Shown here: positions 373-28,713 of the stretch, in pieces
Position numbering within the stretch: the first letter of the stretch is position 1
Layout: each line of letters begins with the position of its first letter
NCBI GenBank assembly: GCA_964371125.1
Contig: CAYJMY010000002.1
Coordinates: 1-56,127, forward strand
Origin: an uncultured Mesorhizobium sp.
GTDB lineage: Bacteria; Pseudomonadota; Alphaproteobacteria; Rhizobiales; Rhizobiaceae
Length of the DNA stretch: 56,127 nucleotides
Direction of reading: 5' to 3'
The notes under the pieces: model-generated
The model's database searches: none
Seen by the model: the letters and a program-made list of their open reading frames with translations, nothing else
What the model was told of the DNA's origin: nothing
Translations under genes and position numbers: made by a program

Positions 373-444
373 CGGTCCAGTCACGGCGAACCGCGAGGCT
401 TTCGACCCGGCGCGCCGGGGGCGATGCCGGTGAAGGTCGGCGTC

Positions 445-2586: not shown

Positions 2587-2600
2587 CGCGATCTCCGAAC

Positions 2601-3818: not shown

Positions 3819-3827
3819 CCCGGACTC

Positions 3828-4865: not shown

Positions 4866-4925
4866 GGCTGCCTGCCCTTCGCCGATGGCGGAACGGGTGG
4901 GTCTCAGTCCCCGCGCCGGAAACAA

Positions 4926-4952
4926 CGCCGGGAGGGTTTTGCCCTCCCGGCG
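4926..4952 (-). terminator. intergenic stem-loop after the substrate-binding protein gene (mRNA stabiliser or attenuator)
   Basis: Perfect 11-bp stem CGCCGGGAGGG/CCCTCCCGGCG with a 5-nt loop between the SBP and first permease genes. No strong U-tract follows. Confidence 0.55.
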
Positions 4953-4962
4953 GCGCGTTGGC

Positions 4963-6627
<1,665 letters not shown>

Positions 6628-6879
6628 TTAGCCGTTACCATCCCGCATCGCGGATGCGATGTCAAAGCTGTGCCGGATGCGGAACCCCGGCAGCAAATCT
6701 GCAATTTTGGGAGACGAACGGTTCGCGCGAATGCGACAATCTTGGCGCAAAAATGGTAACGCGCCACAGAATTGTCAGAATCCGAGACAGCCGCGAGACT
6801 GATGCAATCGCCGCGATCGCGCCAGCGCCACGAAAGGCTCGGTGTCGGACCAGCCGCAGCCGCGCGGCGGCAGCGGCGC

Positions 6880-7980
6880 CTAACCTTCGGATTCCGTGGA
6901 AGGCGGCAGCGGAAGCAGGACGATCTTGCCGACGTGGCTCTTCGACATGAACTCCTGCTGCGCCAGCACGATGTCCTTCAAGGATAGCACGTGTGACACC
7001 AGCGGCCTGATCTCGCCACGCTCGAGATAGGACACGAGATCGGGAAAGACCTGAGGATCCTGCGCCGTGCAGCCGTGGATGGTCAGATCCTTGAGATAGA
7101 GCTTTCGCAGATCGAACTGCACGATCGGACCGGCGATGGCGCCCGACACGCAGCACCGCCCCCTGACCTTCAGGACTTCGAGCAGTTCCCCCCATCGCGG
7201 TCCGCCGACGACATCGATGACGACGTCGATGCTGCCGCTGCCGAGCGCGGCAGGGAGGCTGGCGTCACGGTCGACGCAGCGGTTCGCACCGGCCGCTGTC
7301 ATCGCATCCCATTTGGATTGCGCCGCGACAGCGATGACTTCCGCGCCGCGCCTGCGGGCGAGCTGCACGGCGGCGATGCCGACATTGCCGGACGCACCGG
7401 TGACCAGGACCCTCTCCCCAGCAGCGACCCTGGCGCGGGAAATCAGGTTCTCCGCCGTCGCGAAGGCGCAAGGAACGGCGGCGAGTTCGGCATCGGTCAG
7501 GTCGCATTCGATGCGATAGGTGTCGGCCGCGGGCGCAGTCACGAATTGCGCGAAAGCCCCGTCGCGCTCCGAGCCCAGCCACGGCGTGAAACCGGCCTCG
7601 CTCAACGACAGAAGGCAGCTCTGGACGATCACCCTCTCGCCGATCCGCTTGTCCGCCACACCCGCTCCCACCGCGACGATCTCGCCGCAGACATCGGCGC
7701 CCTGGATGCGCGGAAAGGCGAGTCCACCGCCCGTCCAGTCGCCGTCGTCCGGCTGGCCGGGCATCACTTCGCCGGCCTCCGCCGTTCCCGCCGTAGCCGC
7801 GACCGAGTACCAGCCGATCCGCGTGTTGATGTCGGTGTTGTTGACGCCCGCGGCGCGGATGCGGATGAGGACCTCGCCCGGTCCCGCGACCGGAACCGGT
7901 ACGGATTCGCTGTAGACGAGCCTGTCGTACCCCCCATGTCCGGTGAGCTGGACTGCCGCCATGCGTGTGGGGATTTTCAT
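6880..7980 (-). CDS. medium-chain dehydrogenase/reductase (alcohol dehydrogenase / quinone oxidoreductase-like), 366 aa
   Basis: GPGEVLIRIRAAGVNNTD, PRIQGADVCG, VLVTGASGNVG nucleotide-binding motif and C-terminal HVGKIVL. Start set at MKIPTRM. Confidence 0.88.
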   Translation of the reverse strand: MKIPTRMAAVQLTGHGGYDRLVYSESVPVPVAGPGEVLIRIRAAGVNNTDINTRIGWYSVAATAGTAEAGEVMPGQPDDGDWTGGGLAFPRIQGADVCGEIVAVGAGVADKRIGERVIVQSCLLSLSEAGFTPWLGSERDGAFAQFVTAPAADTYRIECDLTDAELAAVPCAFATAENLISRARVAAGERVLVTGASGNVGIAAVQLARRRGAEVIAVAAQSKWDAMTAAGANRCVDRDASLPAALGSGSIDVVIDVVGGPRWGELLEVLKVRGRCCVSGAIAGPIVQFDLRKLYLKDLTIHGCTAQDPQVFPDLVSYLERGEIRPLVSHVLSLKDIVLAQQEFMSKSHVGKIVLLPLPPSTESEG

Positions 7981-8151
7981 CAGGAGCGATCCATCTGCGC
8001 GCGAACCGGTGCCGCGTAGCGGCGAGGTTGCGGAAGTGTGACCCCGCCCGTGACTACAGGCAAGCCGCCAGTCGCCCGGTGTAGCCGGAAGCGGCCTCTT
8101 TGCCGCGACCTCGCCATGCACCGGACGCCGCCCGCGAGTTGCGGCCGCCGC

Positions 8152-11100
8152 TCAGTACTCCTTCTCGAAGAATATGCCGCCTTTCGCCTTGCCGTCCTCG
8201 CCCGCCTCGCCGCGCAGCTTGACGCCGCGGCCGACGTCCAGGTCGATGGTCGCCTTGCCCGACCCCGCCTTCTCGCCCTTTTCGATGGTCACATAGGTGC
8301 GGTCGTTCAGGTACTTGCCCGCAGAGACCGCGGCGTTGCCCTCGGCGTCGGTCTTCACGTCGAGATCGTCGACGCCGGTCTTGCTGCGCAGCGTCTCGAG
8401 CAGCGAGGTCGGGCCGCCGACACCGGCGATCTGCGCCGCCGCTTCGGCGAGCTGGGCGATCTGCAGCGGCGACAGGTTGGACATCGAGCGGCCGAACACC
8501 AGGCGGGCAAGCACCTCGTCCTCGGGCAGCGACGGAACAGAGGAGAACGAGAATTTCGGATCCGTCGCCGGACCGGTGACCAGGATCGACACGGTGGCGT
8601 CGGAGGCCGTCGTCTCCGCGGCGAGGTCGAGGTACGGCACCAGCGAGCCGGAGAAGCCGAGCGTGCCGCTGGTGAAGTCGAGCCGCCGCCCGAGCAGCGA
8701 CAGCCTGCCGCGGCGCATGGTGAACTGGCCGACCGCCTGCGGCGCGGCCGAGGAACCGGTAAGCCGCAGGGTGCCGCCGAGTTCGGCGTCGAGACCGCGG
8801 CCCTGGACGAAGATCTGCTGCGGCGCGTTGACGGTGACGTCGAGGTTGAGCCCTCCTCCGCCGCCGCCCGCCCCGGCCGGCGTCAATGCCTCCTGCTGGC
8901 TGGTCACGGCCTCGGGCGCGTTCTTGTGCTGGACGCCGAGGGTGGCGAGCGAACCGGGCAGCCGCTCCGGGATGGTGATCACGGTTCGCCCGAGGTTGAC
9001 GGTTCCCGCGAGCGCCGGCGCCGAGACGAGCGGTCCTTTGAGCGTCAGTTCGCCGCCGAGCGTTGCCGTGACGATGCGGCCGTCGGTGTAGCGGCCCTCG
9101 ATGATGCGTAGCGTCAGGTCCGCCGGGAAGCCGGAGCCGGCGTCGATGCCGACCGAACCGCTGGCGGAGATCGTGCCGCCGGTGGAGAGGTTCCCTTTCA
9201 GGCTGCGCATCGTCGCCTTGCCGCCGCCGATGCCGATGTCGGCGGCGAGGTCGGTGACGGCGATGCCCGAGCGCGAATCGACGAAGCGGGCGCCGGACGC
9301 GCGGATATTGCCCGAAACGGCCGGCGCCAGTGCCGGCCCGGCGACGGCGAGCGTGACGTCGGCGGCGCCGGTGAGCGCGAGCCCCTGAGCGGCCAGGCGC
9401 CGGGTGAGGAACGAGAACGGCACCTTGCCGGAGAAGGCGAGATCGAGCGAGGCCGGTCCGCCGAGGCGCACCTTGCCGCCGCCCTGCATGCCGAGCCCGC
9501 CGCCGTCGCCGACATTGGCGGTGAACTCGAGCAAATCGCCGGCATAGGTGCCGGTCGAGCGGATCGACATGGCGCCGAAGCCGGCGTCGCGGGTCTGCGC
9601 GGTCTGCGCGCCGCTCCAGTCGATCTGGTAGCCGACCGTCGGTTGTGCCGCCTTGCCGGTCACGCGGGCGGTGCCGCCGATGGTGCCCGCGGCGCCGAGG
9701 CCCGCGGCAAAGGCGTTGGCGGACGCGGCCGGAAGACCGGAGAAGCGGATGTCCAGCACGAGTTCCGAGCCGGCCGTACCGGAGACGACGACCGAGCCGC
9801 CGCCGACCGACAGCGCGAGATCGTCGAAGACCGCGCTGCCGTTCTCGACGACCACTACGCCGGGGCGCGCCAGGGATGCGGCGATCCCGCTCACCGTCGT
9901 CGAGGCGGAGGACAGCTCGACGGTGGTGCGTGGTCCTTCCACCTGCACGCGGCCGGCGGCGCGCGCCGGCATGCCGTTCACCGTGGCGCCGCCGTTGAAG
10001 CCGGTCCATTCGCCGGCGCGGGTCAGCTTCACGTCGATTTCGACGATGGAAGCGCCGCCGGCACTGACCGACGCGGCCTCGACGCGGCCGGAGACGACGG
10101 GATCGCCGAGATAGTCCGATACGGTGCCCTCGACGGCGAGGTCGCGCGCGGAAAGATCGCCGCGCTTGAATGAAGCGGTGTTCGCGCGAACCGCCAGTTC
10201 GGGAACGCCGTCCGTGCGCGAGAAGCGGATCGTGCCCTCGGCCTTGCCCTCGACGGTCTCGAAGGCGAGCGCGGCGAGCGGCCCGAGATCAGGAAGCGCG
10301 AAGTCGATCTTGCCTACCGGCACGAAGGCATCGTCGAGGACGAGCGAACCGGAGATGCGGTTGTCGCCGAGCGACAGAGCGAGGTCGTCCACCGCGCGCC
10401 GGCCGTCGGTCGTCTTCAGTTCCGCCGAACCGGAGATCGATTGCCCGGCAATGTCACCCTTCAGCGCCACCCGCGCCGCGGGGTTGGCCGGGTCGAACGC
10501 GCCGGAGGCGGTAAGCTCGAGGCCGGTGATGGCGCGGTTGACGGCTTCGATGCGATCGGCGGCTACGGTCAGCGTCACGTCGGGAGCGGATGCCCTGCCC
10601 TTCGCCTCGACGGCGAAGGTGATGGCACCGGTGGCACCCTCGGCGAGGCGGCCGACATCGGCGAGCGCGCCCTTCAGCGTCGCGGCCAGCGTTTCGCCGG
10701 CGAGGTCGACCGAGCCTTCGGCCGTCAGCGGGCCCGACTTCAAGGCGAGCGGCGAGACGGAAAGCGCGCCGGCGGCGTCGCGTGCCATCGTCGCCGTCAG
10801 CGCGACGCGCTCGCCGGCAATACGCTGCGCCGCGACCGGCAGGGCCGACGCGGCGACATCGGCCTCGACGGCAAGGCGCAGCGAACCGTCGCCGCGCGAC
10901 ATCTCGCCGGAAACGTCCGCCCGCAGTGCGGCGCCCGAAAGAGTGCCTTTGGCAATCGTGATCGCGTCTTCGCCAACCGTGGCGGTCGCGCTCGCGGTCA
11001 ATGGTCCGGCAAGGAGAGGCCTGAGAGCTTCCTCGGCGGCTTCGACCGACGCCGCCTTCATGCCGAGTTCGACCGGGCCGGTCAGCGTCGCCACGGCGAA

Positions 11101-14481: not shown

Positions 14482-14511
14482 CGGTCGATGCAAGGGCGAA
14501 GGAGGAAAACG

Positions 14512-17500
14512 ATGCGTTCGGTTCGTCAGGTGTTCTCGGCGGTTCTGGTCCTGCTTGCGCTTGCCGCCCCGGCGATTGCCGCCGGGGGCCGCGCCATCGA
14601 AACCACCGACAATTCCGACTATTTCGGCTTCGACCTGAGGACGGAACAGAACGTCAGCCTCGACCGCTGCAAGTCGATCTGCCTCGGCGACTCCTCCTGC
14701 CGCGCCTTCACCTACAACACCAAGGCGAAATGGTGCTTCCTCAAGTCCGACTACAACAAGCTGAAGCCCTTCAGCGGCGCCGTGGCCGGCAAGATCGTCA
14801 ACCTCGCCGGCGAGCCCGACATCGGCGCGCCTGGCGAACTCGCTTTCGTCCCGGCATGGATGGTCGAGGAGGCGCGCCTCTATCGCCGCAACCTGACCGC
14901 GGCGACGGTGGCCGACACAGACGGCCTGGCCGGCCTCGTCGCGGCCGGCGACCAGGCGATCGTCTCCGACCCGCGCACGGCGATGGGCAAGTTCGCCGCC
15001 GCCATCGCCATCTCGCCCGACGATGCGGAACTGTGGAACAAGCTCGGCCGCGCCGTTTTCGCGGTGACGCCGGCCAACAGCGTCGAGGCGGGCGAACTGC
15101 AGCGCAACGCCACCGGCGCCGCCTACAACGGCTATCTCCTGTCGCGGTCGACGGCCGTGCGCGCCGAGACGCTGGCGACGCTCGCCGCCGGGCTCGACCG
15201 CCGCGAGATGTTCCGCCCAGCCCTGCAAGCCTATGAAGCGAGCCTCAGCCTGGTGCCCTCGCCTTCGCTGCAGGCGGAATACGAGGACCTGAAGGCGCGC
15301 AAGGGCTTCCGCGTCGTCGAGCATTCGGTCGACGCCGACACGGCCTCGCCGCGTATTTGCGCCCAGTTCTCCGAGGATCTGGTCAAGGTCGGCGTCGACT
15401 ACGCCAATTTCGTCACGGTCGACGACGCCGCGCCGAAGGGCGTCGAGGCCAAGGACCGGCAGATCTGCGTCGAGGGCCTGTCGCACGGCCGGCACTATCG
15501 CGTCGCCTTCCGCCCCGGCCTGCCGGCGGCGATCGGCGAGGTGCTGTCGACCCCGGTCGTGCTGTCCATCTACGTCCAGGATCGCGCCCCGAGCGCCCGC
15601 TTCACCGGCGACAGCTTCGTCCTGCCGGCGACCGCGCGCCGCGGCATCCCGGTGGTGACCATCAACATGGACGTCGCCGACGTGAAACTCTACCGGATCG
15701 GCGACCGCTCGCTCGCCCAGCTTCTCTCCGGCTACCAGTTCCTGCGCCAGCTCGACGGCTACGACCTCTCCTCGATCGCCGACCAGATGGGCGCGCCCGT
15801 CTGGGAGGGCAAGCTCGACATCGCCAACGAGCTGAACAAGGAAGTCACCACCTCCTTCCCGGTCGACGAGGCGCTGCCGCAGCGCAAGCCCGGCGTCTAC
15901 GTGCTCACCGCCGCCCCGGCCGACGACCGCCGCGACACATGGGAATCGCGCGCCACGCAGTGGTTCGTCGTCTCCGACATCGGGCTGTCGACCTATACCG
16001 GCCAGGACGGCCTCAACGTCTTTGCCCGCTCGCTCGGCTCCGCCAAGCAGCTCGCCGGCGTCGAACTGACGCTGCTCGCCCGCAACAACGAGATCCTCGG
16101 CACCGCCACGACCGACGCGGAGGGCCGCGCCAAGTTCGCGCCCGGCCTGTCGCGCGGCGAAGGCGGCATGGTGCCGGCCGTCCTGATGGCCGAGAACGCC
16201 GGAACCGACTTCGTCTTCCTCGACATGACCCGCGCCGGCTTCGACCTGTCCGACCGCGGCGTCGAGGGCCGCGCCGCACCCGGCGCGCTCGACGTCTACG
16301 CCTGGACCGAGCGCGGCATCTACCGCGTCGGCGAGACCGTGCATGTCGCGGCCCTTGCCCGCGACGACGCTGCCAAGGCGGTCGACGGCATGCCGCTGAC
16401 CTTCATCTTCACCCGGCCCGACGGCGTCGAGGACCGCCGCATCGTCAGCGACGGCGCCGCGGCCGGCGGCCATGCCGTCGAGCTGCCGCTCGCCGGCAAC
16501 GCCATGCGCGGCACCTGGCAGGTGGGTATCCACACCGACCCCAAGGAAGCCGCCGTCGCCAGCCAGATGTTCCTGGTCGAGGATTTCGTTCCCGACCGGA
16601 TCGAGTTCGACCTTGCCGCCGACCGCGCCGAGATCGCCGCCGGCGAGCCCGCCAACGTCACCGTCGACGGCCGCTATCTCTACGGCGCGCCGGCCGCCGG
16701 CCTTGCCCTCGAGGGCGAGGTGACGGTGTCGACGGTACGCGAATGGGACGACTTCAAGGGCTACTGGTTCGGCCTTGCCGACGAGCAGGAGGGCGAGGCG
16801 ACGCGCATCCCGCTGTCCAACTTGCCGCTGGTCGGCGAAGACGGCCTCGTCACGTTCCCGGTCGTCGTCGACCAGCTTCCCGCCACGACGCGCTTGCTCA
16901 ACGCCAACGTCACGGTGAGGATGCGCGAGACCGGCGGCCGTGCCGTCGAGCGCAATCTCGACATCGGCATCAGGCCGCAGGGCGACCTGATCGGCCTTGC
17001 CCCGCAGTTCGACGGCGAATCCGTGCCACAGGGCGGAACGGCGGCCTTCAAGCTGATCGCCGTCGACGCCGACGGCAAGCGCAAGGACGCCAAAGGCCTC
17101 GTCTGGTCGCTGGTGCGCATCGAGCGCAACTACCAGTGGTACCGGAACGGCAATTACTGGAACTACGAGCCGGTCACGTTCACCCGCGCCGTGGCCGACG
17201 GCACGATCGACGCCGCCACCGGATCCGAGGCCGAGCTGAAGCTTCCCGTCGACTGGGGCCGCTACCGGCTGGAGATCGAGACCGCGGACCCCGAAGGCCC
17301 GGCGACGAGCTACGAGTTCGACGCCGGCTGGTATGTCTCGGCGAGTTCGACCGAGACACCCGACGCTCTCGAAATCGCTCTCGACAAGGACGTCTATGCG
17401 GCCGGCGACGTCGCCAAGCTGCAGGTATCGCCGCGCTTCGCCGGCGAGCTCCTGGTGACGGTGGGCGCCGAGCGCCTGCTGACGACCGTCTCCGTAACGG

Positions 17501-19974
17501 TTCCGGAAGGCGGCGCCACCGTCGACGTCCCCGTCGGCTCCGACTGGGGCGCCGGCGCCTATGTCACGGCCACGCTCTACCGGCCGGGCGAATCGCGCGA
17601 GTCGCGCATGCCCTCGCGCGCCATCGGCGTGAAGTGGCTGAAGGTCGATCCGGGCGCGAAGAAACTCGCGGTCGCCCTGGCGACGCCGGAAAAGACCGAG
17701 CCGCGCGGCCCGCTGTCGATCCCCGTGACGGTTTCCGGCCTGCCGGCGATGACCGACGCCTACGTCACGGTCGCCGCCGTCGACGTCGGCATCCTCAACC
17801 TGACCAACTACAAGGCGCCCGACCCCGAGGGGTGGTATTTCGGCCAGCGTCGCATGGGCATCGAACTGCGCGACCTCTACGGCCTGCTCATCGACGGATC
17901 GCTCGGTGCGGCCGGCCGGCTGCGCACGGGCGGCGACGGCGCCATGATGGCGACCCAGGGCAACCCGCCCAAGGAAAAGCTCGTCGCCTTCTTCACAGGA
18001 CCGGTGAAGCTCGACGCCGACGGCAAGGCGACGGTGACGTTCGACCTGCCGCAGTTCAACGGCACGGTGCGCGTCATGGTCGTCGCGTGGACGAAGGAAG
18101 CGGTCGGCCACGCCACGTCCGACGTGATCGTGCGCGATCCGATCGTGCTGACGGCGGGGCTGCCTCGCTTCATGGCGCCCGGCGACGAGGCGCAGATGAC
18201 GCTCGACGTCACCAACACCGACGCCCCGGCGGGCAGTTATGCGCTGGCGCTCGAAGGCGCCGGCGGGCTGGAGGCGAACACCGGCGGCCTGCCCGACAGC
18301 CTTGTCCTCGAACCCGGCAAGCGGCAGACCTTGACCATCCCGCTCTCGGCGACGAAGACGGGCGACGCCGGGCTGACGATCACGCTCGCGGGCGCCGACG
18401 GCGTCACCGTCGAGCAGGTGCTCGCGCTGCCCATCCGGCCCGCCGCAATGCCGGTGACGACCCGCTCCGTGGTTTCGCTGCCGGGCAATGGCGGCTCGAT
18501 CACGGTCGACCGCGAATTGCTCGCGGCCAGCCTGATCGAGGGCGCGCAGGTCTCGCTCAGCGTCACGCCAAGCTCGGCGTTCGACGTGGTGTCGCTGCTG
18601 ATGACGCTCGACCGCTACCCCTATGGATGCGCCGAGCAGACCACCAGCCGCGCCCTGCCGCTGCTCTATCTCAGCGAGCTGTCGCGCGACTTCGGCCTGC
18701 CCGACGATCCGGAGGTCAAGGGCCGCATCCAGGAGGCCGTCTACAAGGTCGTCAACTACCAGTCCTCTTCGGGCAGCTTCGGCCTGTGGTCGCCCGGCTA
18801 CGGCGACCTGTGGCTCGACGCCTATGTCACCGACTTCCTGACCCGGGCGCGCGAAAAGGACTACGACGTGCCGCATCGCGCCCTGATGCAGGCTCTTTCC
18901 AACCTGCAGAACGCGATCTCCTACGACGTCGACCTGGAAGGCCGCGGCGGCGAGATCGCCTATGCGCTCTACGTGCTGTCGCGCAACCGCAAGGCGTCGG
19001 TCGGCGACCTACGCTATTATGCGGACACGCAGATCGAGGCATTCACCAGCCCGATGGCGATCGCCCATCTGGCGGCGAGCCTTGCGCTCTACGGCGACAG
19101 CCAGCGCTCGGAACGCGCCTTCGGCGCAGCGCTTTCGCTGGCGCAATCGACGACGGAGGTGGACTACTACCGCTCCGACTACGGCTCGAAGCTGCGCGAC
19201 GGCGCCGCCATGCTGGCGCTCGCCGCCGAGAGCAACCCGATGCCCTCGGTCGTCCCGGCGATGGTGAAATATGTCGCTGCCGAACGCGCCAAGGTGCGCT
19301 GGACGAGCACGCAGGACGAGGCGTGGATGCTGCTCGCCGCCCGCGCGCTGACGGCCGGCAACGCGTCGCTGAATCTCGAGGTCGACGGCGCGGCGCATTC
19401 CGGCGCCTATTCGGCGAAGGTGAGCGGCGAGGAGCTTTCGGCGAAGCCGATCACCGTCGTCAACCGGGGCAAGGACGCGCTGGAGGCCGTGGTCACGGCG
19501 TCGGCGATCCCCAACCAGCCCCTGCCGGCCGGCGGCGACGGCTTCACCATCAAGCGCACCTACTACCGGCTCGACGGCAGCGAGGCCAATGTCAGCGAGG
19601 CGCGACAGAACGAGCGCTACGTCGTCGTGGTCAAGGTCGTCAGCCTCAACGACTGGGGCGCCCGCATCCTGATCAACGATCTCCTGCCTGCCGGCTTCGA
19701 GATCGACAATCCGGGCCTCGTCTCAAGCGCGCAGCTTTCCAGCTTCTCGTGGCTGCCGCAGACGGACGCCGCGCACCTCGAATTCCGCGACGACCGGTTC
19801 GTCGCGGCGTTCAACCGCGACCAGGGCGCGGGCTCCGACCTGACGGTCGCCTACGTCGTGCGCGCGGTGACGCCGGGCGTCTACGTCCACCCGGCGGCAA
19901 GCGTCGAGGACATGTACCGCCCCGAGTTCTCGGCGCGCACGGCGACCGGCATGATGGAGGTGAAGGCCAACTGA
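14512..19974 (+). CDS. bacterial alpha-2-macroglobulin family protein with N-terminal PAN/apple domain
   Basis: GGAGGA RBS before ATG 14512. Thioester motif YPYGCAEQ, TERGIYRVGETV (MG2) and C-terminal VEDMYRPE. N-terminal PAN-like C-x3-C-x5-C...WCFLK. Upstream of pbpC, like yfhM-pbpC. Confidence 0.95.
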   Translation: MRSVRQVFSAVLVLLALAAPAIAAGGRAIETTDNSDYFGFDLRTEQNVSLDRCKSICLGDSSCRAFTYNTKAKWCFLKSDYNKLKPFSGAVAGKIVNLAGEPDIGAPGELAFVPAWMVEEARLYRRNLTAATVADTDGLAGLVAAGDQAIVSDPRTAMGKFAAAIAISPDDAELWNKLGRAVFAVTPANSVEAGELQRNATGAAYNGYLLSRSTAVRAETLATLAAGLDRREMFRPALQAYEASLSLVPSPSLQAEYEDLKARKGFRVVEHSVDADTASPRICAQFSEDLVKVGVDYANFVTVDDAAPKGVEAKDRQICVEGLSHGRHYRVAFRPGLPAAIGEVLSTPVVLSIYVQDRAPSARFTGDSFVLPATARRGIPVVTINMDVADVKLYRIGDRSLAQLLSGYQFLRQLDGYDLSSIADQMGAPVWEGKLDIANELNKEVTTSFPVDEALPQRKPGVYVLTAAPADDRRDTWESRATQWFVVSDIGLSTYTGQDGLNVFARSLGSAKQLAGVELTLLARNNEILGTATTDAEGRAKFAPGLSRGEGGMVPAVLMAENAGTDFVFLDMTRAGFDLSDRGVEGRAAPGALDVYAWTERGIYRVGETVHVAALARDDAAKAVDGMPLTFIFTRPDGVEDRRIVSDGAAAGGHAVELPLAGNAMRGTWQVGIHTDPKEAAVASQMFLVEDFVPDRIEFDLAADRAEIAAGEPANVTVDGRYLYGAPAAGLALEGEVTVSTVREWDDFKGYWFGLADEQEGEATRIPLSNLPLVGEDGLVTFPVVVDQLPATTRLLNANVTVRMRETGGRAVERNLDIGIRPQGDLIGLAPQFDGESVPQGGTAAFKLIAVDADGKRKDAKGLVWSLVRIERNYQWYRNGNYWNYEPVTFTRAVADGTIDAATGSEAELKLPVDWGRYRLEIETADPEGPATSYEFDAGWYVSASSTETPDALEIALDKDVYAAGDVAKLQVSPRFAGELLVTVGAERLLTTVSVTVPEGGATVDVPVGSDWGAGAYVTATLYRPGESRESRMPSRAIGVKWLKVDPGAKKLAVALATPEKTEPRGPLSIPVTVSGLPAMTDAYVTVAAVDVGILNLTNYKAPDPEGWYFGQRRMGIELRDLYGLLIDGSLGAAGRLRTGGDGAMMATQGNPPKEKLVAFFTGPVKLDADGKATVTFDLPQFNGTVRVMVVAWTKEAVGHATSDVIVRDPIVLTAGLPRFMAPGDEAQMTLDVTNTDAPAGSYALALEGAGGLEANTGGLPDSLVLEPGKRQTLTIPLSATKTGDAGLTITLAGADGVTVEQVLALPIRPAAMPVTTRSVVSLPGNGGSITVDRELLAASLIEGAQVSLSVTPSSAFDVVSLLMTLDRYPYGCAEQTTSRALPLLYLSELSRDFGLPDDPEVKGRIQEAVYKVVNYQSSSGSFGLWSPGYGDLWLDAYVTDFLTRAREKDYDVPHRALMQALSNLQNAISYDVDLEGRGGEIAYALYVLSRNRKASVGDLRYYADTQIEAFTSPMAIAHLAASLALYGDSQRSERAFGAALSLAQSTTEVDYYRSDYGSKLRDGAAMLALAAESNPMPSVVPAMVKYVAAERAKVRWTSTQDEAWMLLAARALTAGNASLNLEVDGAAHSGAYSAKVSGEELSAKPITVVNRGKDALEAVVTASAIPNQPLPAGGDGFTIKRTYYRLDGSEANVSEARQNERYVVVVKVVSLNDWGARILINDLLPAGFEIDNPGLVSSAQLSSFSWLPQTDAAHLEFRDDRFVAAFNRDQGAGSDLTVAYVVRAVTPGVYVHPAASVEDMYRPEFSARTATGMMEVKAN

Positions 19975-20008
19975 GCCGGATCGGGCACGAAGGAACGGTG
20001 ACGCGGCC

Positions 20009-22105
20009 ATGAAGCCGTCGGTCAAGCGCGCGATGCGCGCCCTCGCCTGGAGCACCGCCGGACTGGCGGCGCTGGCCGGCGTCTCGGTCGGCGGCTTCGT
20101 CGCGCTCGACCGGGCCTTCCCGCCGCCCCTGCCGGCCAGCCTCACCGTGTCGACCGAGGTCGTCGACCGCGACGGCGCACTCCTGCGCGCCTTCGCCACG
20201 CCCGAGGGCCGCTGGCGCTTCGCCGTCGATCTGGATGCGGTCGACCGGAGCTTCGTCGACATGCTGATCGCCTACGAAGACAAGCGCTTCTGGGACCATG
20301 ACGGCGTCGATCCCGTGGCGCTGGCACGCGCGGCCGTCCAGTTCGCCGGCAACGGCCGCATCGTTTCCGGCGGCTCGACGCTGTCGATGCAGCTCGCCCG
20401 GCTGATCGAGCCGCGCGAGAGCCGCTCCCTCGGCGTCAAGCTGCGCCAGATCTTCCGCGCCGTGCAGATCGAGCGCCGGCTGTCCAAGCGCGAGATCCTC
20501 GAACGCTACCTGACGCTCGCACCCTATGGCGGCAACCTGGAAGGCGTGCGCGCCGCCGCCCTCGCCTATTTCGGCAAGGAACCGCGCCGGCTCACGCTGT
20601 CGGAGGCGGCGCTCCTGGTCGCCCTGCCGCAGTTGCCCGAGCGGCGACGGCCCGACCGCAACCCTGACGGCGCGCGCAAGGCGCGCGACCGCGTGCTCGA
20701 CCGCATGGTGCGCGCCGGGCGGCTCGACGCGGCGGAAGCCGAGCGCGCGGCGACGGAGGAGTTCGTCGCCGCAAGGCGTCCCCTGCCCGCTCTCGCCGCC
20801 CACACCGCGGCGACGGCGCTTGCCAACCGGCCCTTCGCCAACCGCCTGCAGCTCACCATCGACCGCCGCGTCCAGGAGGGGCTCGAGACCGTCGCGCGCG
20901 AGGCCGCGACGAAGCTCGGACCGAAGCTCTCGGTGGCGCTGGTCCTCGCCGACGCCCGCAGCGGCGAGATCCTCGGCGCCGTCGGCTCGGCGGACTACTT
21001 CGACGCCACCCGTTCCGGATGGATCGACATGACGCGCGCCGTGCGCTCGCCGGGCTCGACGCTGAAGCCCTTCATCTACGGCCTCGCCATGGAGGAAGGC
21101 ATGGTCGCCCAGGAGACCATGATCGAGGACCGGCCGGCGGATTTTTCCGGCTACCGGCCGCGCAACTTCGACATGAGCTACCAGGGCGACGTCACCGTCC
21201 GCCAGGCGCTGCAGCTGTCGCTCAACGTGCCGGCGATCCGGCTCCTCGACGGGGTCGGCCCGGCGCGGCTCGCCGCCCGCTTCCGCCAGGCCGGCGTCAG
21301 CCTGCAACTCCCGGCTGGAGAAGCGCCCGGCCTCGCCATCGGCCTCGGCGGCGTCGGCGTCTCGCTGCGCGGCCTCGTCCAGCTCTACACGGGCCTCGCC
21401 AATCGCGGCCGCGCCATCGGCCTCAGCGACGGCAGCGAACCGGCGGGCACCACGGTCGCGCCGGCGGCGACGATGCTCTCCGCGGACGCCACCTGGCAGA
21501 TCGCCGACGTGCTGGCCGGCGTGAAGCCGCCCGAAGGGGCGGCGGCGCGCGGCATCGCCTACAAGACCGGCACCTCCTACGGCTACCGCGACGCCTGGTC
21601 GGTCGGCTACGACGGCCGCCACGTCCTCGGCGTCTGGGTCGGCCGCGCCGACGCCGGCGCTGTGCCGGGCCTGTCCGGCTACACGTCGGCTGCGCCCATC
21701 CTGTTCGAGGCCTTCGCCAAGTCGGGGCTCGCCGCCGTGCCGCTGCCGCGGGCGCCTGCCGGGGTGCGCAAACCCACCCGCGACGAACTGCCCGTGACCA
21801 TGGAACGCTTCGCCCCGCTCGAGGAACGCGTCGCCGCCGCGCCGAGCGAACCGGCGCCGCGCATCGTCTTCCCGCCGGAAGGCGCGCGCGTCGACCTCGG
21901 CGCTGCGGGCGCAGAGGCGACGCCGCTGGTGCTGAAGCTGCAGGGCGGCCGGGCGCCGTTCCGCTGGCTCGCCAACGGCCGGCCGCTGTCCGATCCGGTG
22001 CGCCGGCGCACCGCGACCTGGCAGCCGGACGGCGCCGGCCAGTCGACGCTGACCGTCATCGACGCCGCCGGCCGCGCCGCCAGCGTGCGCGTCTTCGTCG
22101 AATAG
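20009..22105 (+). CDS. pbpC: penicillin-binding protein 1C
   Basis: Transglycosylase motifs EDKRF and GGSTLSMQLAR; transpeptidase motifs STLK, SLN and KTG; C-terminal BiPBP_C-like domain. Follows the A2M gene. Confidence 0.95.
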   Translation: MKPSVKRAMRALAWSTAGLAALAGVSVGGFVALDRAFPPPLPASLTVSTEVVDRDGALLRAFATPEGRWRFAVDLDAVDRSFVDMLIAYEDKRFWDHDGVDPVALARAAVQFAGNGRIVSGGSTLSMQLARLIEPRESRSLGVKLRQIFRAVQIERRLSKREILERYLTLAPYGGNLEGVRAAALAYFGKEPRRLTLSEAALLVALPQLPERRRPDRNPDGARKARDRVLDRMVRAGRLDAAEAERAATEEFVAARRPLPALAAHTAATALANRPFANRLQLTIDRRVQEGLETVAREAATKLGPKLSVALVLADARSGEILGAVGSADYFDATRSGWIDMTRAVRSPGSTLKPFIYGLAMEEGMVAQETMIEDRPADFSGYRPRNFDMSYQGDVTVRQALQLSLNVPAIRLLDGVGPARLAARFRQAGVSLQLPAGEAPGLAIGLGGVGVSLRGLVQLYTGLANRGRAIGLSDGSEPAGTTVAPAATMLSADATWQIADVLAGVKPPEGAAARGIAYKTGTSYGYRDAWSVGYDGRHVLGVWVGRADAGAVPGLSGYTSAAPILFEAFAKSGLAAVPLPRAPAGVRKPTRDELPVTMERFAPLEERVAAAPSEPAPRIVFPPEGARVDLGAAGAEATPLVLKLQGGRAPFRWLANGRPLSDPVRRRTATWQPDGAGQSTLTVIDAAGRAASVRVFVE

Positions 22106-22906: not shown

Positions 22907-24367
22907 TCAGTCGGCGAACACCGGGTAGAGCTCGCTGACCGCCGTATCGCGGTACTTGGCGCCGCGATAGACGTCGCGGATGGTGAGTTCGAGGAAACTG
23001 GTGTCGACCGGCTTGGCGAAGTCGACGCGGCGCGCGCCGCGCACGTCCTGCAGCGTCACCTCGAGCGACGGTCCGGTGGCGGTGGCGACTTCCAACTCGC
23101 GGATGCGCGAATTGGCCGACCAGATGGTCTGGTTCTTGTCGTAGCCGTTGATGATCTCGAAGCCGGCGAGCTTGCGCTGGCGGCCGAAGTGCAGCGTCAC
23201 CGTCTCGCCGATGCCGTCGCCCTCCTCCGCTTCGACCCAGGCCGTGTCGCGGTTGCCGTCGAACATCTTGTCGGGCTCGTAGAAATTGCCCTTCTGCGAC
23301 TTCAGCACGGAAGAGGCGCAGTAGGTGACGCCGAACGGGCCCGGCTGGCAGACGCCGGATTTGGCCGGCGCCGAGCGCACCGCCACGATCGGCTCGGCGC
23401 TGGCAACGGACTGCGGCGCCGCGCACGCGGCCACGGCTCGCTCCTTCGCCAGTTCCGCGTAGAAGCTGTCGGGGAAACGCCGCTGGAACGCCTCGTAGGC
23501 GCCGCAGCTGCCCACCTCGACCGCCTGCTCGTAGGCCTCCTTCTCCACCGAGGCCGAGACGGCGGGCGCCGACGGCGGCGCGGCGGCCAGAGTCAGCTCG
23601 GGGACGAAGGAGAAGCGCCCGGTGAGCGAGGAGGAATCCCACGGCACCTGGTTGCCGCCGGTCCCGGCCATGACCTCGTTGCGTACCTCGATCATCAGGT
23701 CGGAGATCGACTGGCCGGGCCTGTCGATGTGCTTCAGGAGAGCCGTGGTGAAGGGTGAATTGGCACCGGAGCCGTCGGAGGCCACGGCGTCCGGCTGTGT
23801 GGCGAAGGCGATGAAGGTGCCGGAGCCCGACTGGATGCGGCCGAGACCTTTGGACAGCGACACCGCGGCGCGGTTCATCGAGCGCGCCATCTCCTTGGCG
23901 AAGGGATTGTCGCGGCAGGCGTCGAGGAAGACGAGATTGGTGCGGCTGCCGCGCTCGAGCTGCTGCATGATCTGCGACAGCGACACGAGCGAGATGTCGA
24001 TCTCGGCCTCGAACTCGACCATGGCGTCGACCGGCACGAGGTAGTTCTGGCCGTTCACCTGAAGCCCATGCCCGGCGTAGAAGAACAGCGCGACGTCGGC
24101 CTGCTCGGCCGCCCGGCCGAAGCGAATCAGCGATTCCACCAGCTTGCGCCGGTCGAGATCGGTTCCGCCGAAGACCTCGAATCCGAGCTTCTCCAGCCGC
24201 GCCGTCATCGCCTCGGCGTCGTTCTTCGGATTGCGCAGCGGCGTCGTGTGCTCGTAGGCCGAATTGCCGACCACCAGCGCCACCCGGCGCTCCGTGGCCG
24301 TCGCGGCCGCGTTCGCCGCCAAAAGCGCAATCAGCGCTATCGCCAGGACGGCGGAAAAACGGATCAA
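22907..24367 (-). CDS. secreted caspase-family (peptidase C14) protein with C-terminal discoidin / NADase-type glycan-binding-like domain
   Basis: TTG start after GGTGAGGT RBS; signal peptide; RVALVVGNSAY, LRNPKNDA, YAGHG and LDACRDNP (His-Cys dyad). C-terminal ASSVL...FDGNRDTAWVE...GIGE...DTAVSEL. Confidence 0.9.
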   Translation of the reverse strand: MIRFSAVLAIALIALLAANAAATATERRVALVVGNSAYEHTTPLRNPKNDAEAMTARLEKLGFEVFGGTDLDRRKLVESLIRFGRAAEQADVALFFYAGHGLQVNGQNYLVPVDAMVEFEAEIDISLVSLSQIMQQLERGSRTNLVFLDACRDNPFAKEMARSMNRAAVSLSKGLGRIQSGSGTFIAFATQPDAVASDGSGANSPFTTALLKHIDRPGQSISDLMIEVRNEVMAGTGGNQVPWDSSSLTGRFSFVPELTLAAAPPSAPAVSASVEKEAYEQAVEVGSCGAYEAFQRRFPDSFYAELAKERAVAACAAPQSVASAEPIVAVRSAPAKSGVCQPGPFGVTYCASSVLKSQKGNFYEPDKMFDGNRDTAWVEAEEGDGIGETVTLHFGRQRKLAGFEIINGYDKNQTIWSANSRIRELEVATATGPSLEVTLQDVRGARRVDFAKPVDTSFLELTIRDVYRGAKYRDTAVSELYPVFAD

Positions 24368-24487: not shown

Positions 24488-24521
24488 AAACGAAAACGGG
24501 GCCGGACATCGTCCGGCCCCG
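24488..24521 (-). terminator. rho-independent terminator of the small secreted protein gene
   Basis: Stem CGGGGCCGGAC/GTCCGGCCCCG (24497-24521) followed on the minus strand by TTTTCGTTT, about 18 nt after the stop at 24540. Confidence 0.8.
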
Positions 24522-24539
24522 CCAGGAACCTGCCCCCGA

Positions 24540-24872
24540 TCAAGGCACCGGCTGGTAGAAGCAGGGCATCGCGCGCGCCTGGTACTGCGTGGCGGCGCCG
24601 CCGCCGACGAAGATGATCGCCTTGTTCTTGGCGCCGACCCAGTGCGACCACTTGGAGCCGTACTGCGCCTTGACCGCGTTGACCCAAAGGGCCTGCGCCA
24701 CGGCCGGGTTCTGACCGACGGCCATGGAGTAGGTCGCCTTGCAGTCGCCGTCCTGCGGGCCGGTGGCAGCCTTCATCGAAGCGGCCTGTGCGGTCGCGCC
24801 GAGCGCGAGCGCGAGCGCCGCGGCGATACCGAGTCCTGCGAGGCCGAGAACGGCGTTTGACGTCTTGGACAT
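24540..24872 (-). CDS. small secreted hypothetical protein (110 aa, 2 Cys, Trp-rich)
   Basis: GGAGG RBS, signal peptide ending AQA, high-GC3 codon usage and its own terminator. Alternative start at 24878. Confidence 0.8.
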   Translation of the reverse strand: MSKTSNAVLGLAGLGIAAALALALGATAQAASMKAATGPQDGDCKATYSMAVGQNPAVAQALWVNAVKAQYGSKWSHWVGAKNKAIIFVGGGAATQYQARAMPCFYQPVP

Positions 24873-25000
24873 TTTCATTTCCTCCATTCGAAGTGCCGGC
24901 GATTGTCGTGGACAAGCCCGGCGGGGGTTGTGGTCGACGGACCCTGTTGATCCGCCAGTTCAATCGTCAGTTCGACGATGACCCATCTTCGCTGCAGGAG

Positions 25001-25049
25001 TTTTCGGACGTGTTTCGTCCGACGATCGTTTCTATTTCATTTGTTTCCG
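25001..25049 (-). promoter_or_regulatory. GAAA direct-repeat regulatory element, copy 1 (upstream of the small secreted protein gene)
   Basis: Minus strand reads CGGAAACAAATGAAATAGAAACGATCGTCGGACGAAACACGTCCGAAAA and matches the element at 28196-28244. Confidence 0.65.
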
Positions 25050-25062
25050 GATTGGCCGCGAA

Positions 25063-26658
25063 TCAGCCGCGGCGGGGAAACGCCTCGACGACGTCGGCGA
25101 CTTCATCCGCGGTGAACGGCTTCTCCAGGACCGGGCGGCCGGATTCGGCGAGAAAGCGGCCGGAGACCGGTCCCAGCGCGTCGCCGGTGACGAACAGGAT
25201 TCTGTCGACCAGCGCCGGATGATGCGCCTTGAGCCAGCGGAACAGCGCCGGTCCGTCGAAATCGGGCATGCGCAGGTCGCAGACGATGGCGTCGTAGCCG
25301 GCCGGGTCGGCCGCGATCATCGCCTTGCCCTCGTTGCCGCCCGTCGCCATGTCGCAGCGGAAGCCGGCCTTCTCCATCGCGTCGGCGAGGAGCAGCGCGA
25401 TCTCCGGCTCGTCGTCGATGACGATGGCGCGCGGCAGGTCGGACCGGGGCGGAGGGGAGGCTGCGCCGGCGTCGGATTCGGCGACATCCGGGGATGCGCG
25501 GCGGCGTCCGACTGTCGGCAGGCTCAGTTCGAAGGCAGCGCCGACGCCGGATTCGACGAGCGAGAGCACCCCGCCCTGCGCCTCGGCAAGGCCCCGCGAG
25601 ATCGACAGGCCTATGCCGGTGCCGACGCCCTGTGGTTTCGTCGTGAAGAACGGGTCGAAGATGCGCTGCGCGATCTCCGGCGGAATGCCGGTCCCGTTGT
25701 CCGCCACGACGATCCCCAATCTGCCGTCCTTCTCGACCGCGCTGACACGTATCTCGCGGTCGCCTTCGACGGCTTCGAGCGCATGGGTCGCGTTGACCAG
25801 CAGGTTGGTGAGGATGTTCTGGACCTGGTCGGGATCGGCGACGATCTCGGGAAGCCCCGGCGCGATGTCACAGCGCACCACGATGCCGCTGCTCTCGATC
25901 CCGTAGCGCAGCAACTCGATGGCGCTCTCGACGATCGGCAGGGCCTGTACCGCCCGCGTCTCGGCCTTGCGCTGGCGGGCGATCGCCAGGAAGGCGCGAA
26001 CCACGCGGACGCAGCGCTGCGCCGCCGCCTCGATCTTCTCGGTCCGCTCGATCGCGGAGCGGCGCAGGAAGCCCGTCGCGGCCTCCTCGCGCAGCAGCGT
26101 CGACTGACCGAGCACGATGGACAGCGGATTGTTCAGTTCGTGAGCGACGCCCGCAAGCAGCGAGCCGATAGCCGCGAGCTTCTCGCTCTGGTGCAGCGCC
26201 TCGCGCTGCCGCTCGATTTCGGCGACCGCCGCGTGTGCCGAAGAAAGGTCGCGGAGATTGGCGGTGAAATAGCGGCCCTCCGGGAGTACGACCTCGGTGA
26301 TCGCCAGTTCCACCGGGATGATCCGCCCGTCGCGGCAGCGCGCCTCCATCTCGACCCGGCGGCCGAGCACGTGCGGCTCGCGCGTAGCGCGATAGCGCGC
26401 GATGCCGGCTTCATGCGCATCCTGCATATGGTCGGGTACGATGAGGTCGCTGATGCGTCGGCCGACGGCCTCGTCGCGCGGATAGCCGAACGTCTCTTCG
26501 GCGGCGGGGTTTATGGCGACCACCACTCCGCGGTCGTCGACGACGATGACGGCGTCGAGCGCGGACGCCACGACGGCCGCATAGACGGCCGAAAGCTGCT
26601 CCGGCGTCTTCAGCCGGTGAGCTGCCTGGTCATCGGTTGCAGCGGAAAAATCGTTCAC
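25063..26658 (-). CDS. cytoplasmic hybrid sensor histidine kinase with FixL-like heme-PAS domain (PAS-HisKA-HATPase-REC)
   Basis: PAS segment LIVPDHMQDAHEAGIARYRATREPHVLGRRVE...YFTANLRDL resembles FixL heme-PAS. H-box HELNNPL, N-box, DNGTG, FDPFFTTK and GTGIGL. REC motifs IDDE, CDLRMP and KPF. No transmembrane segment. GTG start overlaps the regulator stop. Confidence 0.9.
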   Translation of the reverse strand: MNDFSAATDDQAAHRLKTPEQLSAVYAAVVASALDAVIVVDDRGVVVAINPAAEETFGYPRDEAVGRRISDLIVPDHMQDAHEAGIARYRATREPHVLGRRVEMEARCRDGRIIPVELAITEVVLPEGRYFTANLRDLSSAHAAVAEIERQREALHQSEKLAAIGSLLAGVAHELNNPLSIVLGQSTLLREEAATGFLRRSAIERTEKIEAAAQRCVRVVRAFLAIARQRKAETRAVQALPIVESAIELLRYGIESSGIVVRCDIAPGLPEIVADPDQVQNILTNLLVNATHALEAVEGDREIRVSAVEKDGRLGIVVADNGTGIPPEIAQRIFDPFFTTKPQGVGTGIGLSISRGLAEAQGGVLSLVESGVGAAFELSLPTVGRRRASPDVAESDAGAASPPPRSDLPRAIVIDDEPEIALLLADAMEKAGFRCDMATGGNEGKAMIAADPAGYDAIVCDLRMPDFDGPALFRWLKAHHPALVDRILFVTGDALGPVSGRFLAESGRPVLEKPFTADEVADVVEAFPRRG

Positions 26659-27401
26659 GCCGCCGCTCTCGGCGGCACGTAGATGTAGCCGACGCTGCGT
26701 ACCGTGCGAATGACCTGCGGCTTTGCCGGGTCGACCTCGACCTTCTTGCGGATACGCGTCACCCGGATGTCGATGGAGCGGTCGAAAGGATTGTCGTCGC
26801 GGCCGGGCGCGGTGTCGAGCAGCCTGTCGCGCGACAGGACACGGTTGGGGTTGCGCGCGAACATCGCGAGAAGATCGAATTCGGTCGCGGTCAGGCGGAT
26901 TTCGGTACCGTCCTCGTCGATCAGGATGCGGCGCTCAAGGTCAAGGCACACCTTGCCGAAGCAGACGCGCTTGCCGTTCGCGGCCGGCGCCGGCGCAGCC
27001 GAGGCGTCCGGTCGCGCAGCACCGGTGCGGCGCAGAACGGCGCGCACCCTCGCCTTCAGTTCGCGAAGATCGAAGGGCTTCGTCACGTAGTCGTCCGCGC
27101 CCATCTCCAGCCCGACCACCCGGTCGACGACGCCATCCATGCCGGTCAACATGATGATCGGCGTCCCGGTGGTCGCCCTGAGGCGTCGCGCGATTGAAAA
27201 GCCGTCTTCGCCCGGCAGGGAAACATCCAGAATGACCAGGTCGGCCGGCCCGGAGTTCAGCATGAGGTCCAACTCCGCCGCGCACGAGCAGCGGCTGACC
27301 GCGTAGCCGTCCTTGACGAAGTAGTCGGCGATGATTCCACGGATGTCGGGCTCGTCGTCGACGATCGCGAGCCTGACCGCATTCGAGCGTTGCATCGGCA
27401 T
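26655..27401 (-). CDS. OmpR/PhoB-family response regulator
   Basis: VDDEP, ILDVSLPGEDG, GADDYVTKPF and winged helix DRSIDIRVTRIRKKVE...IRTVRSVGY. Start 27401 (GGAG upstream) or 27395. Confidence 0.93.
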   Translation of the reverse strand: MPMQRSNAVRLAIVDDEPDIRGIIADYFVKDGYAVSRCSCAAELDLMLNSGPADLVILDVSLPGEDGFSIARRLRATTGTPIIMLTGMDGVVDRVVGLEMGADDYVTKPFDLRELKARVRAVLRRTGAARPDASAAPAPAANGKRVCFGKVCLDLERRILIDEDGTEIRLTATEFDLLAMFARNPNRVLSRDRLLDTAPGRDDNPFDRSIDIRVTRIRKKVEVDPAKPQVIRTVRSVGYIYVPPRAAA

Positions 27402-27471
27402 CGCCCTGCTCCAACATTCCCTTCGAGGTTTCACCGTTCGCCGGGGTCATTGTGCGGGGCGCTTCACCCGC

Positions 27472-27510
27472 CTTGACCTTCTCTTTTGATGGAGCATATA
27501 TTTCATGAAA
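27472..27510 (+). promoter_or_regulatory. sigma70-type promoter of tetR with adjacent palindromic operator
   Basis: CTTGAC (27472-27477), 17 nt, then CATATA(T), close to the rhizobial CTTGAC-N17-CTATAT consensus. The perfect palindrome TTTCATGAAA follows at 27501-27510. Confidence 0.6.
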
Positions 27511-27537
27511 ACTGGCTTTGGTCAATGTAGGGGCGAA

Positions 27538-28137
27538 ATGGCCAGACGTTATACCCTTGGAAAACGCGCCGAGGCGAAAGAGCAGACCCGCGACAGGATC
27601 CTGCGGGCGACGATGCAGGTGCATGACGAGAAGGGCGTGGCGCCGACCACCTTCGCCGACGTCGCCGCGCGCGCCGGCGTCGGCCAGGCCACCGTCTCGC
27701 GCTATTTCCCGACCATCGGCGACCTCGTCCAGGCCTGTGGCCAGCACGTCTGGATGGAGATGCGTCCGCCGGTGCCCGACATGGCGAAAGACGTCTTCGC
27801 CGGCGTCGCAGGCCTGGACGCGCGTCTGGAGAAGCTGGTCGAGGAGGTCGACGGCTTCTATGCGCGCGGCGCCCTGCGCCTCGACCTCGCTTCGCGCGAC
27901 CGCGATCTCATCCCCCAACTCGACGGTTTCCTCAACGCCGTCGAGGGCGGCGTCGCCGCCCTCGTCAGGGAAGCCCTCGCCCCGTTCGCGCCCGGCGAGG
28001 AGGCGCTCGAGGTGGCAACCGCGCTGATGGGCTTTCGCGTCTGGCAGTCCTTCCAGCGCACCTCCGTCGCCGGCGGCCGGATGCCCGTTCTGAGGGCCAG
28101 GCTGCTGCGGTGCGCGCTAAAAACGGCCGACGCCTGA
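27538..28137 (+). CDS. TetR/AcrR family transcriptional regulator
   Basis: N-terminal HTH TRDRILRAT...TTFADVAARAGVGQATVSRYFPT. Confidence 0.92.
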   Translation: MARRYTLGKRAEAKEQTRDRILRATMQVHDEKGVAPTTFADVAARAGVGQATVSRYFPTIGDLVQACGQHVWMEMRPPVPDMAKDVFAGVAGLDARLEKLVEEVDGFYARGALRLDLASRDRDLIPQLDGFLNAVEGGVAALVREALAPFAPGEEALEVATALMGFRVWQSFQRTSVAGGRMPVLRARLLRCALKTADA

Positions 28138-28195
28138 GGGCGACGGCAAAACGGCGGATTCGCTCCGGCAGGGTGCCCCCCAGAAGAGCTGCAAT

Positions 28196-28244
28196 CGGAA
28201 ACAATTGAAATCTCCGCGACCCCGCGACGAAATCGACGTGAAAC
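28196..28244 (+). promoter_or_regulatory. GAAA direct-repeat regulatory element, copy 2 (upstream of the globin gene)
   Basis: CGGAAACAATTGAAATCTCCGCGACCCCGCGACGAAATCGACGTGAAAC. It is 15/16 identical to copy 1 at the start, with identically spaced GAAA half-sites. Confidence 0.65.
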
Positions 28245-28287
28245 GGCGCCCCGCCACGGTCCGGCCCCTGACAACAGGAGCACGACC

Positions 28288-28713
28288 ATGACCCCCCACC
28301 AGATTTCGCTCGTCGAAGAGAGTTTTCGCGCCGTCGTCCCGATCCGCGCCACGGCGGCGGAGATTTTCTACCGCCGGCTGTTCACGCTCGATCCAGACTT
28401 GCGCGGCCTTTTCGCCGGAACCGACATGGCCGAACAGGGCCGCAAGCTGATGGCCAGCCTCGCCTTTGTCGTCCAGGGGCTGAGGAGCGCCGAATCCATC
28501 GTCCCGGCGGTCGAGGCGCTTGCCCGGCGGCACGTCGGCTACGGCGTGCGCCACGGCCACTACCGGACAGTCGGGCTGGCCCTCGTCGCCACCCTCGAAG
28601 AAGGCCTCGGCGAAGCCTTCACTACGGAAGTGCGCGAGGCATGGCTCGCTGCCTACGGCCTGCTCTCGGGCGTGATGCTTGCCGCGGCCGGAACCGAAGA
28701 GGCGATGGCCTGA
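28288..28713 (+). CDS. single-domain globin (flavohemoglobin-type globin domain, Vgb/Cgb-like)
   Basis: AGGAG RBS. FYRRLF (B10 Tyr), LF (CD1 Phe), EQGRKL (E7 Gln), LARRHVGYGV (F8 His), HYRTVG and EAWLAAY. No reductase domain. Confidence 0.92.
   Translation: MTPHQISLVEESFRAVVPIRATAAEIFYRRLFTLDPDLRGLFAGTDMAEQGRKLMASLAFVVQGLRSAESIVPAVEALARRHVGYGVRHGHYRTVGLALVATLEEGLGEAFTTEVREAWLAAYGLLSGVMLAAAGTEEAMA

Follow-up and report, generated by a model that had tools for sequence, protein, structure and literature searches.

A stretch of 56,127 nucleotides from an uncultured Mesorhizobium sp. (contig CAYJMY010000002.1, hereafter the window) contains a predicted two-component system flanked by two similar non-coding elements, A and B, which we interpret as promoters dependent on its response regulator. 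The minus strand carries, in this order, the genes of the regulator and the kinase, element A and a gene designated target 1, and the plus strand carries a tetR gene, element B and a globin gene. The regulator (26655..27401, minus strand) is of the OmpR/PhoB family, with PF00072 and PF00486 domains, Asp59 and the recognition-helix Arg of the clade described below, and is the predicted reader of both elements. The kinase (25063..26658, minus strand) is a PAS-HisKA-HATPase-REC hybrid in which His173 and Asp461 are present and the proximal His82 is kept; the best matches of its PAS domain in the PDB are the heme domains of FixL (1y28, E value 2e-18) and DosP, with His82 aligned to the FixL His. 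No Crp/Fnr gene was found in the locus. Predicted target 2 (28288..28713, plus strand) is a single-domain globin of the flavohaemoglobin-like type. Predicted target 1 (24540..24872, minus strand; the start may be 24878) encodes a 110-residue protein with a hydrophobic N-terminus, likely a signal peptide, and has a terminator-like hairpin on its 3' side (24495..24523, minus strand). Searches of Pfam and NCBIfam matched this protein to no family; it has 18 database relatives, an alignment of 15 sequences shows two invariant Cys, and its predicted fold is poor (mean predicted local distance difference test score 53.5, predicted template modelling score 0.39).

Element A lies on the minus strand and comprises a distal box, GAAACAAATGAAAT (25034..25047), with half-sites at 0 and +9 (9-bp period), predicted to cover about -69 to -56; a proximal half-site pair (25001..25016; +31 and +42, 11-bp period), predicted to lie over the -35 region; and a -10-like hexamer, GAAGAT (24985..24990), 10 bp past the last half-site, with a putative transcription start near 24978. 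Element B, on the plus strand, comprises the distal box GAAACAATTGAAAT (28198..28211), the proximal pair at +31 and +42 (28229..28244) and the hexamer CACGGT (28255..28260), with a putative start near 28267. As a first-pass annotation of this DNA had reported, the copies agree at 15 of their first 16 positions, and their GAAA half-sites start at 25047, 25038, 25016 and 25005 on the minus strand and at 28198, 28207, 28229 and 28240 on the plus strand, spaced by 9, 22 and 11 bp in both. The reported half-sites delimit only part of the element, which runs on to the -10-like hexamer at +57 to +62, missed by that annotation; the CGA which it had placed in the middle (+19 to +21) is not conserved among 45 family copies, and neither is a fifth half-site considered at +20.

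The pattern GAAA-N5-GAAA-N18-GAAA-N7-GAAA matched the 5,050,449 bases of the genome, both strands included, only at the two window sites, and the 16-mer with up to two mismatches gave the same two sites; because the four-GAAA pattern was derived from them, its count measures uniqueness, not significance. A generic repeat search found 425 inverted pairs in 10 kb and ranked the element pair (70% identical over 37 nt) only 9th. The significance of the elements rests on their conservation elsewhere. A consensus sigma70 promoter scan detected neither of them, as expected for elements that have no -35.

Loci around relatives of the regulator (80), from related genomes (45) and around relatives of target 1 (13) were compared. 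Conservation at orthologous loci, on which the proposal of a small regulon depended, was found: both copies are present in L102, L133 and L134, and the target-1 copy also in L128-L130 and L136. In L129, L130, L133 and L134 an additional GAAAC half-site lies 11-12 bp upstream of the target-1 distal box, and this half-site is degenerate in the window. Similar elements adjoin related kinase-regulator pairs in alpha- and beta-proteobacteria, the beta examples coming from targeted loci. Their common layout consists of a distal box, GAAACAWWYGAAAY (0, +9), followed after 22 bp by a weaker 11-bp pair (+31, +42) and after a further 10 bp by the -10-like hexamer; the half-sites are of the YGAAAY type, the hexamer reads nAnnnT at +57, and the whole faces a downstream gene. 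Spacers diverge across classes while half-sites and spacing persist. Among the 45 seed copies, picked by the distal box plus the +41/42 site, positions unused in the selection were conserved as well (G+31 in 37, A+32 in 31, A+58 in 37 and T+62 in 28, compared with flank frequencies of 0.17-0.29). When copies were selected by the distal box alone, 32 of 45 loci yielded a total of 54 matches, of which 36 have GAxA at +41/42 (0 and 2 in shifted controls) and 32 have nAnnnT at +56/57 (0-4 in controls); both sets include the window or its close kin, and the counts overstate independence. The incomplete T of the hexamer fits the low frequency of -7T in alphaproteobacterial promoters, for which PMC7703639 gives values of only 30-43%. 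By sequence, both elements are thus local copies of a fixed-geometry motif which adjoins one group of OmpR-type regulators in many proteobacteria.

This group was delimited by phylogeny. A quick tree of 131 regulators split 53, including that of the window, from 78, including VirG, FxkR and TorR-like proteins (Shimodaira-Hasegawa-like approximate likelihood ratio support 99). A 67-row FastTree tree was made without the recognition helix and without 64 rows that were near-duplicates, formed long branches or were redundant in the outgroup; the 36 clade members left in it still grouped (98). An Arg in the recognition helix is found in 52 of the 53 clade members and in none of the 78 others; some RstA-type regulators have an Arg at the same helix position, and the marker may not be unique to the clade. 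The element, scored with a matrix at a threshold of at least 25 bits, is present at 31 of 41 clade loci versus 8 of 76 non-clade loci; the first of these counts overlaps with the training data, and all counts are raised by kinship among the loci. The eight non-clade loci comprise seven from Mesorhizobium, with an 11-bp version, and one Vibrio match. In a held-out set of 12 further plasmid loci, out of 40 listed, all five Arg loci carry the element (11 copies, 30-52 bits), and none of the seven non-Arg loci has a match above 17 bits.

The genome-wide matrix scan called for by the first-pass annotation gave a similar picture. Six matches reach at least 25 bits (two in the window, three on contig C91 and one on contig C32), the next scores 17.6 bits and the reversed genome yields a maximum of 15.0 bits; orthologues of the C91 elements were in the matrix training set and the C32 type was not. 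Fourteen OmpR-type matches were found in this genome, five of them Arg regulators, on C2, C91 and C32, and the six best matrix matches sit at the three loci which hold all five. Element and clade occur together both in different taxa and at the paralogous loci of this genome, which supports the earlier proposal that the adjacent OmpR-type regulator controls both genes; we predict that it reads both elements. Upstream of the regulator gene itself no matrix match of at least 14 bits was found, and autoregulation through the element is not indicated.

Two groups of loci depart from the common box. In eight Mesorhizobium loci with non-Arg regulators (L019, L025, L030, L034, L038, L047, L058 and L064), GAAAC-N6-GAAAC with a similar proximal layout lies upstream of the regulator and precedes a small, likely exported protein. 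Three Arg-clade loci (L009:3225-3250, L013:2838 and L022:3898-3920) have GATACA 9-bp repeats below the threshold, possibly a further version of the box.

The fixed pattern was also searched in wider sets of genomes. In 401 genomes of the same class as the window it gave 28 matches in 20 genomes versus 6 for the reversed pattern; 2 of the 28 are the window's own, 6 come from loci that had shaped the pattern and 20 are new. The latter fall in 19 loci, and for 6 of these the genome carries such a kinase-regulator system elsewhere. In a phylum-wide sample of 401 genomes, 10 had matches; these numbered 11, two of them the window's own and one already known, versus 6 for the control, and hence showed no enrichment.

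The layout was compared with those of known systems. In VirA/VirG, as in the window, an OmpR-family regulator is associated with a hybrid kinase. The vir-box pattern RTTDCAWWTGHAAY is given in PMC11351099 and its half-site in PMC10432156; the window distal box matches it at 12 of 14 positions, but both misses fall in the left arm, where the window has a direct GAAACA and the vir box an inverted RTTDCA. In a comparison of promoter geometry made in this analysis, the vir box of virA, of virB and of the site upstream of virK starts 56-57 bp before a -10-like hexamer. With the measured virB1 and virC1 starts listed for the C58 Ti plasmid in PMC3738593, the distance from vir-box start to transcription start is 69 bp for virB1 and 71 bp for virC1, the window prediction being +69; this geometry is matched in only two of the five promoters, virD1 being at +78 and tzs at +59 and the virA start being listed upstream of the box. 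The window regulator differs from VirG in its score (177 versus a cut-off of 344), in its Arg where VirG has Leu and in its position outside the VirG branch of the trees. The window system moreover has a cytoplasmic PAS sensor and no vir genes, and the best promoter of the Ti plasmid scores only 21 bits with the element matrix.

The Rhizobium hFixL-FxkR system also combines a hybrid kinase with a His-bearing FixL-type PAS domain and an OmpR-type regulator, 47% identical to that of the window, and an upstream box near -62 is described for it in PMC7888657. Its K-box, GTTACA-N4-GTTACA according to PMC4999443 and PMC7888657, repeats every 10 bp in pRL9 and spans -77 to -62. As the first-pass annotation had stated, the element is different from the K-box (best match 7/12); FxkR has a Gln at the helix position, falls outside the window clade and acts mainly on fixK. 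The same annotation had described an unrecognised, lone binding box. It was right to set this apart from the K-box, but the vir box provides a precedent for its distal part, and what it saw is rather a whole promoter layout, family-wide and with varied targets. Promoters of the PhoB/PhoP type, with pho boxes 10 bp upstream of the -10 (as stated in PMC1906773) and PhoP dimers stacked over the -35 (as stated in PMC11825685), likewise have tandem half-sites with an 11-bp period some 10 bp ahead of the -10, which replace the -35, and further dimers upstream. Their half-site is another one, and the upstream pair of the window does not carry on in 11-bp steps but is set off by a gap of 22 bp and has a 9-bp period. 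With FixL/FixJ the window shares a heme-PAS-type sensor, but its partner is OmpR-type and its kinase contains a receiver and scores 188 versus the FixL cut-off of 850. From these comparisons, the elements appear to work like a PhoB/VirG-type promoter; they belong to neither the VirG nor the FxkR system.

We therefore consider that the elements are promoters dependent on the adjacent OmpR-type regulator, with a probability of about 0.82. The features seen in the sequence are an 11-bp pair at +31/+42, a hexamer 10 bp further on, and a regulator with a receiver, a winged helix and Asp59. The FixL-like, predicted heme-binding kinase would phosphorylate the regulator. One regulator dimer would then sit at about -69 to -56, on the distal box, which is strongly conserved, and another at about -38 to -23, on the weaker 11-bp pair, where it would stand in for a -35 as PhoB does at pho boxes. 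Both dimers together would recruit sigma70 polymerase, transcription would begin about 7 nt past the hexamer, at the two starts given above, which are based on the family layout and the virB1 analogy, and the globin and the small, likely secreted protein would be switched on. As to the input, a heme ligand is predicted, and falling oxygen, by analogy with FixL, is somewhat more likely than not; a non-heme signal would be distinctly less probable, and nitric oxide or carbon monoxide a little less probable again.

Apart from the training overlap, the kinship of the loci and the limited agreement with VirG geometry, several observations weigh against this interpretation. The window hexamers are poor, with only A2 and T6 of a -10, and the globin-element copies of L133 and L134 have no nAnnnT in register. 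Element A begins 16 bp past the kinase stop, and as no terminator separates the two, read-through could also supply target 1. Ten of the 41 clade loci have no match of at least 25 bits, and the seven Mesorhizobium loci combine a non-Arg regulator with the related 11-bp version, so that the Arg is not required for GAAAC half-sites. Among the 20 new class-wide matches only 6 have both the A and the T of the hexamer (14 have the A), a kinase and a regulator lie within about 7 kb in only 4 of the 19 loci, and the 9 loci that stay unexplained are close in number to the 6 control matches. For an OmpR-type dimer bound in tandem, a direct repeat of 9 bp is short. As for the heme, two Arg lie close to the place of the FixL distal Arg of the FG loop, out of register.

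The elements might instead be read mainly by a paralogous clade regulator, of which C91 and C32 hold two each, or by all five regulators in cross-talk. The five have the helix Arg and related elements in common, and in other genomes copies occur far from any kinase. However, each locus has a box version of its own, which is conserved among the orthologues (GACACAAT-type at C91 and L109; 11-bp at C32, L104, L105 and L107), and the relatives G001 and G003 carry the C32-type system with no match to the whole window locus, so that we regard such a reading as unlikely. A promoter of an extracytoplasmic function sigma factor, with TGAAAT as -35 and CGAA 16 nt later as -10, was suggested by the fact that both window copies read TGAAAT-N16-CGAA and resemble the RpoE7 promoters TGTAAC-N16/17-CGAA listed in Table 1 of PMC6180224. 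Across the family, however, CG[AT] is found in only 13 of 54 copies, CGT in none and C at +30 in 22 of 54 (background 0.34), the +42 site and the +57 hexamer would fall inside the transcript, and no sigma-factor gene is annotated within 6 kb at the four annotated held-out Arg loci; this makes sigma-factor promoters very improbable.

Binding of the neighbouring TetR to the elements as operators has an even smaller chance of being correct. In its favour, tetR is part of the locus, and TGAAAT, which forms the right arm of the distal box, is similar to one half of a palindrome between the regulator gene and tetR; the element, however, is a direct repeat, it occurs at about 30 other loci that have no tetR homologue, and such a homologue was seen in only 9 of the loci compared, all of them the window or close orthologues. 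Least probable of all, to the point of being negligible, is that the pair is a remnant of a local duplication or a chance similarity without function: its low identity over 37 nt and its place among so many inverted pairs would agree with this, but half-sites and spacing are kept while the spacers differ, and the held-out and own-genome results argue against it. Dependence on the adjacent regulator stays the preferred explanation.

Within that explanation, TetR would set the amount of regulator and kinase via a divergent promoter rather than read the elements. The tetR gene (27538..28137, plus strand) was found only in the closest orthologous loci. Overlapping divergent sigma70-like promoters, with TTGACC on each strand, occupy 27473..27525 on both strands around the palindrome TTTCATGAAA (27501-27510), which has 2 copies in the genome; five orthologues have the -35 hexamers unchanged and retain most of the palindrome. 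TTTCATGAAA is a candidate TetR operator for tetR and the regulator-kinase operon. Elsewhere in the window, 22907-24367 (minus strand) encodes a 486-residue protein in which a caspase-like domain is combined with a C-terminal domain of the F5/8 type, and open reading frames (ORFs) of 1828 and 698 residues (14488-22105, plus strand) resemble an alpha-2-macroglobulin/PbpC pair.

The genes downstream of the element vary across the family. The heuristic by which 45 downstream ORFs were chosen for a Pfam scan was rough, and some of them are in the wrong frame; the scan found DUF1127 proteins (4), alpha/beta hydrolases (4), GNAT (3), AurF-like proteins (2), PAS kinases or proteins resembling kinases (5) and several families represented once, and 16 had no Pfam match. 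Since the targets elsewhere are diverse, the element is a family promoter layout and not an oxygen-specific box. A globin gene is present in 9 of the 47 family loci examined, which represent few lineages; a His-bearing PAS kinase is found in 8 of these 9 and in 10 of the 38 without globin. Judged in this way, the element marks the regulator family, and the gas-to-globin link would belong to a subset. In Novosphingobium pentaromativorans (L166:107) the element precedes a run of genes in which two oxidoreductases and an adenylate cyclase are encoded together with a group 1 truncated haemoglobin and with the kinase and regulator. In L124 (8262 and 9889) elements stand before glutamine synthetase and ammonium transporter genes, which suggests recruitment into nitrogen control there.

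Three versions of the box coexist in the window's genome and each is kept in orthologues, namely 9-bp GAAACA here, 9-bp GACACA at C91 and an 11-bp version at C32. The C91 locus (about 2000-9500) has two Arg regulators, a 1448-residue kinase and three GACACAAT/GCCACAAT-type elements; in its orthologue L109 the elements lie upstream of the genes for the kinase, for cation efflux and for a small protein. The C32 locus (about 360-5050) is a third paralogous system, in which a Tyr replaces the PAS His and the distal box has 11-bp spacing; its element precedes a gene whose L104 orthologue is an L,D-transpeptidase (YkuD). Tentatively, and with considerable doubt, we suggest that an unnamed, widespread OmpR-type clade with PAS hybrid kinase partners and the helix Arg shares one layout, its paralogues being insulated by the geometry and the left arm of the distal box. 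If so, this design would have two other settings in the K-box, with its 10 bp, and in the vir box, with its inverted arm; dimers would have to be arranged in a non-standard way on the 9-bp repeat, and sequence would be enough to read the regulons throughout the clade.

The exact motif GAAACAATTGAAAC was not found in the literature searched, which lacks most subscription journals, and a prior description is possible; topic searches (globin/OmpR/heme-PAS kinase, DUF1127, GAAACA) gave no description of this system, curated regulon databases being outside their scope. The class of mechanism, OmpR/PhoB-type activation, is already familiar. The finding gives this two-component group a candidate binding site, a promoter layout and a protein marker that consists of one residue, and makes its targets predictable (globins, DUF1127 proteins, alpha/beta hydrolases, GNAT acetyltransferases, AurF-like proteins and, in many cases, the kinase itself). 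The presence in one genome of three paralogous systems, each with its own box version, makes a natural test of how cross-talk is avoided. Locally, the elements predict a compact gas-sensing module which would control a single-domain globin and to which an uncharacterised small protein would be tied.

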